A DNA stretch of 64,000 nt. It comes from a virus. Lineage: Duplodnaviria > Heunggongvirae > Uroviricota > Caudoviricetes. The notes beneath the pieces were generated by a model that saw only the letters and a program-made list of their open reading frames with translations, had not been told where the DNA came from and made no database searches. How positions within the stretch are numbered: position 1 is the stretch's first letter; the number at the start of each line of letters is the position of its first letter. The stretch is taken from the IMG/VR virus record IMGVR_UViG_3300028797_000097, one strand, 5' to 3'. Position numbers and translations under genes: made by a program. Of the stretch, positions 49,827 through 50,953 are shown one piece after another.

Positions 49827-50756
49827 ATGAGATATATTAAAGGGAGAAGTAATTTAAGTTGCACAATTTTTGTGCCATGGGATTGTAATAATCATTGCAA
49901 GTTCTGTACATCTAAGCAGATGTATAAACAAAGAACTTGTGATATTAATGCAATTCTTGCACAAATCAAAAAACTTAATGAAAATCCGTTAATTGAAGAA
50001 TTTGTATTAACAGGTGGAGAACCATTAGCAGATATTGAGAAATGTCAGATTCTTATTGACGCTATGGAGAAACCTGTTTATATCAATACTACATTCCCAA
50101 CATTTACAGATTTGCCTGGAACAGTAGAAATGTCTAAAGTCAAGACGTTAATCGATTTCATTAATAATAATGAAAAGATTGGTGGTTTGAATATTTCCAG
50201 ACATATGCATCAACAGTTTTATGAACCAGTTTTGCCAGTAGATATGTTTGCACATTTAATTAAGAAACATATTAAATTAAATGTAGTTCTTTCTAAGGAG
50301 TTTAATATAAACGAATTTAAAGCGTTTATAGAACCTTATAAAGAATTAGAAAATCTATCTATCTGTATTAGAGCAGATTATCGGAATATTACTAAAGATA
50401 ACTTAAAGAATCGTGACGATGTATTTGAAAAGTTAATTTTAGAATATGAATATGAAAGTTCTGGCGGATGTATGGTTTGTAATGACGATAGATTTTGGAA
50501 TAATAATTTATTAATCAGTTATCATCGTGGAATGGAACATTCTAAAGTAGTTTATGGTAATAAGATATTTGTAAATGATATTTTGATTACTATTGATGGA
50601 CAAGTTTATGATGACTGGGATTTAGTAACAAATACAGAATTTGAAAGATGGGTATTTGGCGAATATTTATTGACAGATGATATATCTGAATATGAAAATG
50701 ATCCAGTATATATTGATTGGTTATTGAAAAAGAATGGTGAAGAAGGTATATTATGA
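49827..50756 (+). CDS. Second radical-SAM enzyme (309 aa) with a C-terminal CxxC (possible auxiliary cluster)
   Basis: CTIFVPWDCNNHCKFC (CxxxCxxC), GGEPL and a C-terminal GGCMVCNDD. Confidence 0.7.
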   Translation: MRYIKGRSNLSCTIFVPWDCNNHCKFCTSKQMYKQRTCDINAILAQIKKLNENPLIEEFVLTGGEPLADIEKCQILIDAMEKPVYINTTFPTFTDLPGTVEMSKVKTLIDFINNNEKIGGLNISRHMHQQFYEPVLPVDMFAHLIKKHIKLNVVLSKEFNINEFKAFIEPYKELENLSICIRADYRNITKDNLKNRDDVFEKLILEYEYESSGGCMVCNDDRFWNNNLLISYHRGMEHSKVVYGNKIFVNDILITIDGQVYDDWDLVTNTEFERWVFGEYLLTDDISEYENDPVYIDWLLKKNGEEGIL

Positions 50757-50953
50757 CATTAACTGAATTACGACAAAAACTTAAAACCGCAGGTATGAAA
50801 CAACTTAAAATTACTGGTTGTGGTGGATATGTAGGATGTGGAACTGGTGGTTATTATGACTATGCCAATGCACATTTTGGAAATCCTCCACAATGGGTAT
50901 CGTATAGTTGCGGATTTTATATGAGATGTGGTGGTCCTACTACATGTGGTTAA
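50753..50953 (+). CDS. 66-aa Cys/Gly-rich peptide with the family N-terminal module, translationally coupled (ATGA) to the radical-SAM gene
   Basis: MTLTELRQKLKTAGMKQLKITGCGGYVGCGTGGYYDY...YSCGFYMRCGGPTTCG. Confidence 0.45.
   Translation: MTLTELRQKLKTAGMKQLKITGCGGYVGCGTGGYYDYANAHFGNPPQWVSYSCGFYMRCGGPTTCG

Follow-up and report, generated by a model that had tools for sequence, protein, structure and literature searches.

What would a phage do with a radical S-adenosylmethionine (SAM) enzyme whose gene runs directly into that of a small cysteine-rich peptide? The question is raised by a stretch of 64,000 nucleotides (nt) from the viral record IMGVR_UViG_3300028797_000097 (Caudoviricetes), hereafter the window, in which the open reading frame (ORF) at 49827..50756 encodes a radical SAM protein of 309 amino acids (aa) and the ORF overlapping its stop codon a peptide of 66 aa marked by repeated Cys-Gly (CG) motifs. 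An initial annotation had taken the two for a maturase and its substrate of the SCIFF/ranthipeptide kind. Our comparisons suggest instead that the window holds, in split form, a radical SAM system that is borne mainly by phages and in which, for most relatives, the peptide is the enzyme's own C-terminal tail, and that the enzyme rather probably acts on the CG motifs of that peptide.

Identity of the radical SAM enzyme

The features that define the enzyme are the following.

49827..50756, + strand: radical SAM enzyme, 309 aa, of a mostly phage-borne, uncharacterised family
49884..49907, + strand: CNNHCKFC, the CxxxCxxC triad (C20/C24/C27) for the SAM-binding [4Fe-4S] cluster, invariant in alignments of 33 and 118 sequences
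50013..50024, + strand: GGEP (aa 63-66, within TGGEP, aa 62-66), the 'GGE' SAM-binding motif, with G63, G64, E65 and P66 invariant
50469..50531, + strand: C215-x-V-C218 ... Y-H233-R-G in a beta-hairpin domain, with C215, C218 and H233 invariant

The protein is a member of the radical SAM superfamily. Its CNNHCKFC, GGEP and GGCMVCND motifs lie where the initial annotation had placed them, the Pfam profile Radical_SAM (PF04055) scores 35.2 bits against a gathering score of 29.5, covering the N-terminal ~85 residues only, and the fold includes a partial triosephosphate isomerase (TIM) barrel. The confident AlphaFold2 (AF2) model (predicted local distance difference test, pLDDT, 92.8; predicted template modelling score, pTM, 0.90) has a radical SAM barrel and, C-terminal to it, a beta-rich domain whose strands 208-215, 218-225 and 228-235 leave C215 and C218 flanking a hairpin turn and H233 on the next strand. 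The SAM triad, C215 and C218 are the only invariant Cys in the two alignments of homologs, and further residues invariant in both include H233, S124, R125, R7, K30, Y33, N87, N152, R182 and W264. We infer that C215, C218 and H233 may form an incomplete second metal or cluster site.

The gene follows nrdD and nrdG, some homologs carry the JGI label 'organic radical activating enzyme', and the best NCBIfam E-value belongs to NrdG2 (2.9e-8, N-terminal 63 residues only), the likeness to glycyl-radical activases residing in the N-terminal cluster region and a Fer4_12 match. A second NrdG-type glycyl-radical activase next to an incidental, non-conserved small ORF, the scenario that the initial annotation had set against its own proposal, is nonetheless scarcely credible, as the window already encodes a bona fide NrdG a short distance upstream.

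45189..47660: NrdD
48671..49183, + strand: NrdG activase, 170 aa (TIGR02491 171.3 bits, cutoff 126.1; phrog_626 176 bits)

No NCBIfam model, the glycyl-radical activase models TIGR02491, TIGR02495 and TIGR02826 included, gave the 309-aa enzyme a score near its cutoff; NrdG2 (33.3 vs. 131.15 bits) and NrdG (22.2 vs. 126.1) fell far short, as did moaA (25.9 vs. 284), YydG (18.8 vs. 300), CXXX-repeat maturase (15.8 vs. 350), SkfB (11.7 vs. 300) and PapB (9.2 vs. 340). Moreover, the enzyme has an extra conserved C-terminal beta-domain with CxVC...HRG that activases lack, the examined flanks of the homolog loci L001, L002, L005, L094 and L098 are free of NRDD and Gly_radical genes, and the small ORF, as detailed below, is conserved, subject to selection and mostly found in fusion with the enzyme.

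The initial annotation had also suggested that GGCMVCND, the motif that holds C215 and C218, could bind an auxiliary cluster of the twitch or SPASM type. SPASM domains have about seven conserved Cys (CX9-15GX4C...CX2CX5CX3C...C) and two auxiliary clusters, and twitch domains (MoaA, BtrN, SkfB, SpeY) are truncated versions with three or four Cys and one auxiliary cluster on a beta-hairpin. No SPASM, twitch or rSAM_more_4Fe4S profile from Pfam and NCBIfam matched the enzyme, and two conserved Cys by themselves would be too few for a SPASM or a canonical twitch cluster, which leaves the SPASM part of the suggestion without support. Likewise, no Pfam match was found to PqqD or to the recognition element (RRE) of peptides that are ribosomally synthesised and modified post-translationally (RiPPs); because the cluster motif starts at residue 20, an RRE domain is absent from the enzyme.

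The closest folds are MoaA and the SPASM/twitch peptide modifiers SuiB, ChlB, SkfB, EpeE, anSME, PqqE and CteB, with viperin also near, and the BFVD viral structure library contained no close relative (best TM score 0.66 at 17% identity). By sequence the best match in the PDB is the peptide epimerase YydG/EpeE (E 3e-6), which shares only about 15-18% identity with the phage enzyme and whose YydF substrates are neither Cys-Gly repeats nor fused to the enzyme. In comparison with MoaA, the GTP 3',8-cyclase, the third Cys is replaced by His and a molybdopterin pathway context is missing, and MoaA has no Cys-Gly partner. A viperin-like enzyme of defence or antidefence was considered and rejected on the weak score of the PADLOC pVip model (17-18 bits only).

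The closest working parallel would be a SPASM/twitch maturase acting with a Cys-rich peptide (CteB-SCIFF, PapB, SkfB, SuiB, ChlB, anSME). The phage enzyme differs from this group in having neither the seven-Cys motif nor an RRE, with C215, C218 and H233 as the only extra conserved candidate ligands, in the variable Cys-Gly repeats of its peptide and the usual fusion of the two, and in belonging to a mostly phage-borne family. To our knowledge, every well-studied case of a radical SAM enzyme with a Cys-rich peptide combines SPASM or twitch auxiliary clusters with a separate, leader-containing precursor. Targeted searches of a library of papers returned no description of the present family and nothing relevant on fused precursors or C-terminal Cys; no curated model covers it, and a radical SAM enzyme with a cognate Cys-rich peptide in a self-tethered architecture would be unusual.

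The Cys-Gly peptide and its link to the enzyme

Downstream of the motifs described above, the end of the enzyme gene and the sequence that follows it contain these features.

50739..50746, + strand: Shine-Dalgarno-like, purine-rich GAAGAAGG, read from the sequence, 6 nt 5' of the peptide ATG and within the enzyme gene
50753..50953, + strand: peptide of 66 aa, with a weak N-terminal module in aa 1-21, then 45 aa that hold five [G/S]-C-G motifs and end in ...TTCG
50956..50986, both strands: intrinsic terminator, bidirectional, separating the convergent genes of the peptide and the 203-aa protein, a 12-13-pair stem followed by a T-run
50994..51605, - strand: 203-aa CG-repeat protein with the N-terminal module MNLLEARELLKNKGYTVRRLNE, Cys-Gly/Ser/Tyr repeats (about nt 51267..51539) and a conserved C-terminal domain

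As first described, the TGA stop of the enzyme (50754-50756) overlaps the ATG of the peptide (50753-50755) as ATGA. The peptide reads MTLTELRQKLKTAGMKQLKITGCGGYVGCGTGGYYDYANAHFGNPPQWVSYSCGFYMRCGGPTTCG, and its last 45 residues contain five Cys, each followed by Gly. The overlap and the Shine-Dalgarno-like element suggest that the peptide is translationally coupled to the enzyme, and the gene was called on other assemblies by independent pipelines. The peptide is under purifying selection: codon differences between the window and locus L011 amount to three synonymous and no non-synonymous ones in the peptide vs. 41 and 33 in the enzyme, those between the window and L010 to five of each kind in the peptide with every CG kept, and the peptide variants P0302 and P0303 retain five of five CG motifs. 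The CG peptides of L093 and L002 differ by the in-frame duplication of a 19-aa repeat. Only two CG-rich ORFs (at least five CG motifs within 45 aa) exist in the 64-kb window, both flanking the enzyme gene, and the same score was reached by 23 of 10,398 ORFs over 113 loci, essentially all of which adjoin an enzyme homolog; the association thus exceeds chance.

A profile search run exhaustively over 1.84 billion representatives yielded at least 211 family members at E ≤ 1e-30 (50%-identity clusters), and fusion was counted in the 96 full-length members among the best 150, taken as representatives at 50% identity. A fused C-terminal Cys-Gly tail (two to seven CG or terminal-Cys motifs), which nearly always ends in ...G[G/S]C, was present in 65 of these 96, with a single terminal Cys in four more; fusion is thus the dominant architecture, and the window shows a split variant. 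Among the first 120 homologs, 25 have a Cys within the last three residues, vs. 8.8% expected (p = 4e-5), and 11 bear one lone Cys at the extreme C-terminus.

The gene neighbourhood tells the same. A CG-rich ORF or tail of at least three motifs occurs within 1.5 kb of the enzyme in 18 of 24 non-redundant loci, and 20 of the 862 ORFs near the enzyme are CG-rich vs. 1 of 1114 farther away (Fisher p = 7e-7). In the related loci (97-38% identity) the partners vary in size and position: a peptide of 65-84 aa lies 4 bp downstream of the enzyme in L002/L093, together with a convergent CG-repeat protein bearing the N-terminal module, one of 66 aa lies 708 bp downstream in L001, and others measure 104 and 97 aa (L005 and L017), 142 and 116 aa (L094 and L095) or 50-70 aa (L098, L101, L102). 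A convergent protein of 221 aa containing a CG region is found in L016/L097, and L116 combines a fused tail with two further CG peptides of 75 and 121 aa.

A sister radical SAM family of about 30% identity (L019-L092), located in the chromosomes of gut Oscillospiraceae and Negativicutes (for instance L033:3989-4876 in Dysosmobacter segnis, L035 in Acidaminococcus hominis and L088 in Megasphaera massiliensis), served as negative control and is not counted as a member. It derives from a genome scan with 484 tblastn-confirmed relatives, 80 of which were fetched and proved mostly of the sister type. Here CRMRC replaces CxVC and YHKT replaces YHRG, no CG-rich peptide accompanies the enzyme (a CG-rich ORF was found in only one of 22 loci) and no curated family matches. 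The fusions, the neighbourhood enrichment and the purifying selection thus show that enzyme and Cys-Gly peptide form a conserved functional pair, conserved also in related phages, and the pairing proposed by the initial annotation is upheld.

The kind of pair that had been proposed fared differently. For a classical exported RiPP (SCIFF, ranthipeptide or sactipeptide), the 66-aa peptide would have to consist of leader and core, undergo maturation by a SPASM/twitch enzyme and then be released as bioactive product, which would agree with a Cys-rich small ORF coupled to a radical SAM gene, with CteB, SuiB, SkfB and ChlB among the fold neighbours and with the several precursor-like ORFs of L116. 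We consider this very improbable. Besides the missing SPASM/twitch match, the two extra conserved Cys only and the PapB and SkfB scores of 9-12 bits against cutoffs of 300-340, the peptide had no match at E ≤ 1 in NCBIfam, Pfam or PHROG, the SCIFF precursor model and other curated precursors included, the 'leader' sequences of CG peptides are not conserved between clades, the loci examined contain no RRE, protease or transporter gene, and in most relatives the supposed precursor is covalently fused to the enzyme. Because fusion dominates and neither protease nor exporter stands alongside, an exported RiPP is less likely than an enzyme that acts on its own tethered Cys-Gly tail or makes use of it.

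The CG regions themselves were compared in a pooled set of 34 non-redundant regions with 178 Cys. Gly follows the Cys in 75% of cases and in 12% the Cys is itself C-terminal, while the preceding residue is Gly in 49% and Ser in 17% (66% for both), so that the motif is [G/S]-C-G, in 2 to about 10 copies at variable spacing. Distances between Cys are mostly 4-12, with spacings of 1, 2 and 3 seen 1, 1 and 3 times and almost no CxxC or CC, and the residues between motifs drift while the CG motifs stay. The dense CxC, CC and CxxC, the fixed spacing and the scarcity of aromatic residues by which metallothionein- or ferredoxin-like domains are recognised are not found in these regions. A glycyl-radical motif (CG[YF], by likeness to RVxG[FWY]) was rejected, as Gly or Ser prevails two residues after the Cys, where Tyr makes up 5% and Phe 4%, and the 12% of Cys that are C-terminal lack a following Gly.

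The regions consist of 25% Gly, 15% Ser, 12% Cys and 8.5% Tyr, with [G/S]-Y-[G/S]-like stretches, and the Cys-Gly tail is predicted to be intrinsically disordered (residues 298-322 of the natural fusion P0118 have pLDDT 33-44 in the AF2 model). Such a composition would also suit a physical module, a low-complexity tail that mediates self-association, condensate formation or redox-sensitive tethering and stays chemically unchanged, and CG regions do occur inside proteins that have nothing else in common (that of 203 aa here and that of 221 aa in L016). This would not explain why Gly follows Cys almost obligatorily, why a Cys stands at the extreme C-terminus, why the tie is exclusively to one radical SAM family and why minimal tails have one or two Cys, and we regard this possibility as improbable. 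The CG regions, including that of the 203-aa gene, contain no tandem repeat at the DNA level and bring the local GC content to 0.435 vs. a genome background of about 0.29, and they are thus maintained at the protein level.

CG peptides other than that of the window were likewise devoid of Pfam, PHROG and NCBIfam matches. Precursors of microcin B17 and other linear azole-containing peptides have a Gly/Ser/Cys-rich low-complexity core with Cys flanked by Gly, and are matured by a YcaO cyclodehydratase with a dehydrogenase. The likeness is limited to the peptide, as the partner here is a radical SAM enzyme; no YcaO cyclodehydratase/dehydrogenase was present among the called genes with Pfam matches over ~10 kb on either side (in the identical loci L117-L119) or in other loci.

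The 203-aa protein is probably a second partner of the enzyme. Its gene is convergent, tail-to-tail, with that of the peptide and the terminator is common to both; the N-terminal module and the CG/Ser/Tyr repeats noticed at first are present, whereas the divergent orientation then assigned to the gene is not. In 40 homologs the module (MNLxEA..L..KGYxVxxLNECG) is invariant and the C-terminal domain conserved, while the number of SSYSSGCG repeats varies through in-frame indels, and the same arrangement of enzyme and 203-aa-type protein recurs in L002, L010, L011 and L012. The 66-aa peptide had been credited with the same module, of which it carries a weak version only (L3, E5, L10, G14).

This module of ~20 aa (consensus MNLKEAxxxLKxNGYK) stands on at least six otherwise unrelated phage ORFs, and on more in related phages. 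Those of the window are at 29351..30637(+), 50753..50953(+), 50994..51605(-), 51620..51994(-), 52008..52442(-) and 52461..53096(-), and related loci contribute L001:4469-4903, L002:6156-6497(-) and L113:4082-4771(-). MNLxE might fit an L-x-E prohead-protease or T4 capsid-targeting-type signal. A HicA-like reading was dropped as the 19 members searched had no HicA or consistent Pfam match at E ≤ 10.

What the enzyme may do with the Cys-Gly motifs

The sharp motif, the variable copy number and spacing, the predicted disorder, the presence of several CG proteins at one locus and the maturase-like folds make the CG motifs look like repeated recognition sites for the enzyme and not like a folded metal-binding domain, and because the peptide has this appearance we favour, as rather probable, a reaction of the enzyme on the motifs with radical attack at or next to the Cys. 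The C20/C24/C27 cluster would cleave SAM to the 5'-deoxyadenosyl radical, and within a Cys-Gly motif this radical would abstract a hydrogen from the Cys or from a position beside it. The Cys thiolate of the substrate, or the carboxylate of a C-terminal Cys, could meanwhile dock on the incomplete C215/C218/H233 metal site and complete it, by analogy with CteB and MoaA. The outcome would be a covalent change at Cys-Gly, for which a sactionine-type thioether, oxidation to formylglycine or dehydroalanine, and epimerisation are candidates. The thiomorpholine of enteropeptins (PMC12395415) is a precedent for a radical SAM thioether that links a Cys to the adjacent residue.

Several points weigh against this explanation. 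A thioether from Cys to the next residue cannot be the general chemistry, given that C-terminal Cys have no next residue; because nothing follows these terminal Cys, a chemistry centred on the Cys itself would be expected. The fusion of substrate and enzyme in about two thirds of the family is unusual for peptide maturases, and the absence, in the loci examined, of any protease, exporter or RRE/leader-recognition gene accompanying the pair is not what a maturase would lead one to expect. In the available DNA of L014, L015, L096 and L099/L100 a CG partner beyond a lone terminal Cys, or any partner, is missing. The AF2 model of P0118 gave no rise in tail pLDDT and no sign of docking on the enzyme. 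Finally, from the coupling by itself the peptide could be substrate or helper.

The latter role underlies the alternative that deserves most attention, namely that the tail is an accessory or consumable part of the enzyme, as the missing ligand of the C215/C218/H233 site, an Fe-S carrier, or a sacrificial donor of sulfur, hydrogen atoms or electrons spent at one turnover per Cys, and that the substrate is a small molecule (a nucleotide or an NAD-related compound). Fusion as the majority architecture is what an accessory domain would show, and the 11 of 120 first homologs with a lone Cys at the extreme C-terminus agree with it. MoaA and viperin, which act on GTP and CTP, are among the closest folds and give weak profile matches (moaA, pVip), the invariant residues include many basic or polar ones (R7, K30, R125, H126, R182, H233, R234), and genes for nucleotide or NAD metabolism are often adjacent (nrdDG here; NAPRTase, PnuC, NMNAT-like, dCMP deaminase/NUDIX and Tad2-like elsewhere). 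However, a ligand requires one or two Cys at a fixed position, which leaves 2-10 variably spaced repeats unexplained, as well as the separate CG-repeat proteins with their own C-terminal domain, and the sharply conserved Gly after Cys suggests recognition motif by motif. No small-molecule pathway gene is consistently adjacent, and the NAD and nucleotide neighbours may merely reflect accessory-gene islands of phages. On this evidence we hold the accessory tail to be unlikely, if far from negligible.

Returning to the favoured reaction on Cys-Gly, a broader version can be proposed more tentatively. A new radical SAM class, found widely among the phages of gut and rumen (T4-like and jumbo phages), might subject its own [G/S]-Cys-Gly repeat peptide, tethered or co-translated, to a reaction not yet described, with a metal site completed by the C-terminal Cys of the substrate and a product that serves the infection of anaerobic hosts. 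Within this proposal, the reaction could be a new post-translational chemistry of Cys-Gly, or each Cys could act as a consumable sulfur or radical-quenching unit.

The phage and the meaning of the pair

The window virus is, by its gene content, a T4-like myovirus of gut or rumen, in agreement with the initial annotation: a T4-type set of structural and replication genes comprises a gp15-like tail-sheath stabiliser, TerL, UvsW, UvsX, a gp41-like helicase and gp32, besides NrdD/NrdG. A protein identical to the 203-aa product of 50994..51605 (P0121) is recorded on a contig of 415,750 bp, and because of this the phage is possibly very large, which suggests a jumbo phage or part of a very large assembly. 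The enzyme family (ingroup) was found in 16 IMG/VR contigs, including jumbo-phage contigs of 317-411 kb. The locus had no megablast match in 50,697 phage records, and tblastn retrieved only two unannotated faecal phage contigs at ~30% identity and no cultured phage with the enzyme.

Around the nrd genes, nrdD and the nrdG region have between them the gene of a small PQ-loop membrane protein (112 aa, 47690..48028(+); PF04193, E 3e-13), and nrdG is flanked by two paralogous ORFs of ~220 aa, 48025..48684(+) and 49152..49823(+) (28% identity, E 2e-20), the second of which overlaps the 3' end of nrdG. Both ORFs match, weakly and over part of their length, the middle of the profile for the major capsid protein Gp23 (E 1e-4 and 1.5e-6, respectively). 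In the terminase region, 3953..4960(+) and 4926..5846(+), the match to the T4-type large terminase (Terminase_6N/ATPase) is confined to an ORF of 306 aa, which is preceded, with a 35-nt overlap, by a Cys-rich DUF7487 protein of 335 aa; a split of the terminase gene is possible, or its interruption, for instance by a mobile element. The ORF 39178..43986(+) encodes a protein of 1602 aa with multiple cadherin and bacterial Ig-like repeats, probably a virion surface or adhesion protein. Two phage SPFH/Band-7 proteins are encoded at 7592..8413(+) and 31208..32806(+), one with a flotillin domain.

In other phage loci, genes for NAD salvage or NAD-related anti-defence often lie within a few kb of the enzyme homologs. 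NAPRTase is found near the enzyme in L001, L114 and L017, the nicotinamide mononucleotide (NMN) transporter PnuC in L005 and an NMNAT-like protein (CTP_transf_like) in L002; L098 has an isochorismatase/nicotinamidase-like gene (3442-3981) and a phosphoribosyltransferase (4869-5900), L094 a Tad2-like gene (3520-3915), L113 a PARG gene and L001 also a dCMP deaminase/NUDIX gene. None of the window ORFs scanned is a gene of the NAD-salvage type. The proximity may reflect a functional link or just a shared accessory-gene island. On a viral contig of 153 kb, the family member is followed two genes downstream by a different, second radical SAM gene (303 aa, L098:5900-6808).

Pairs of a radical SAM enzyme and a Cys-rich peptide are a rich source of new chemistry, and the split enzyme and 66-aa peptide of the window would make an ideal minimal pair for biochemical reconstitution. 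Solving their reaction would reveal a new modification of peptides or proteins, or a new mode in which a radical enzyme carries its own consumable cofactor, and also the benefit that phages infecting anaerobes gain from it.

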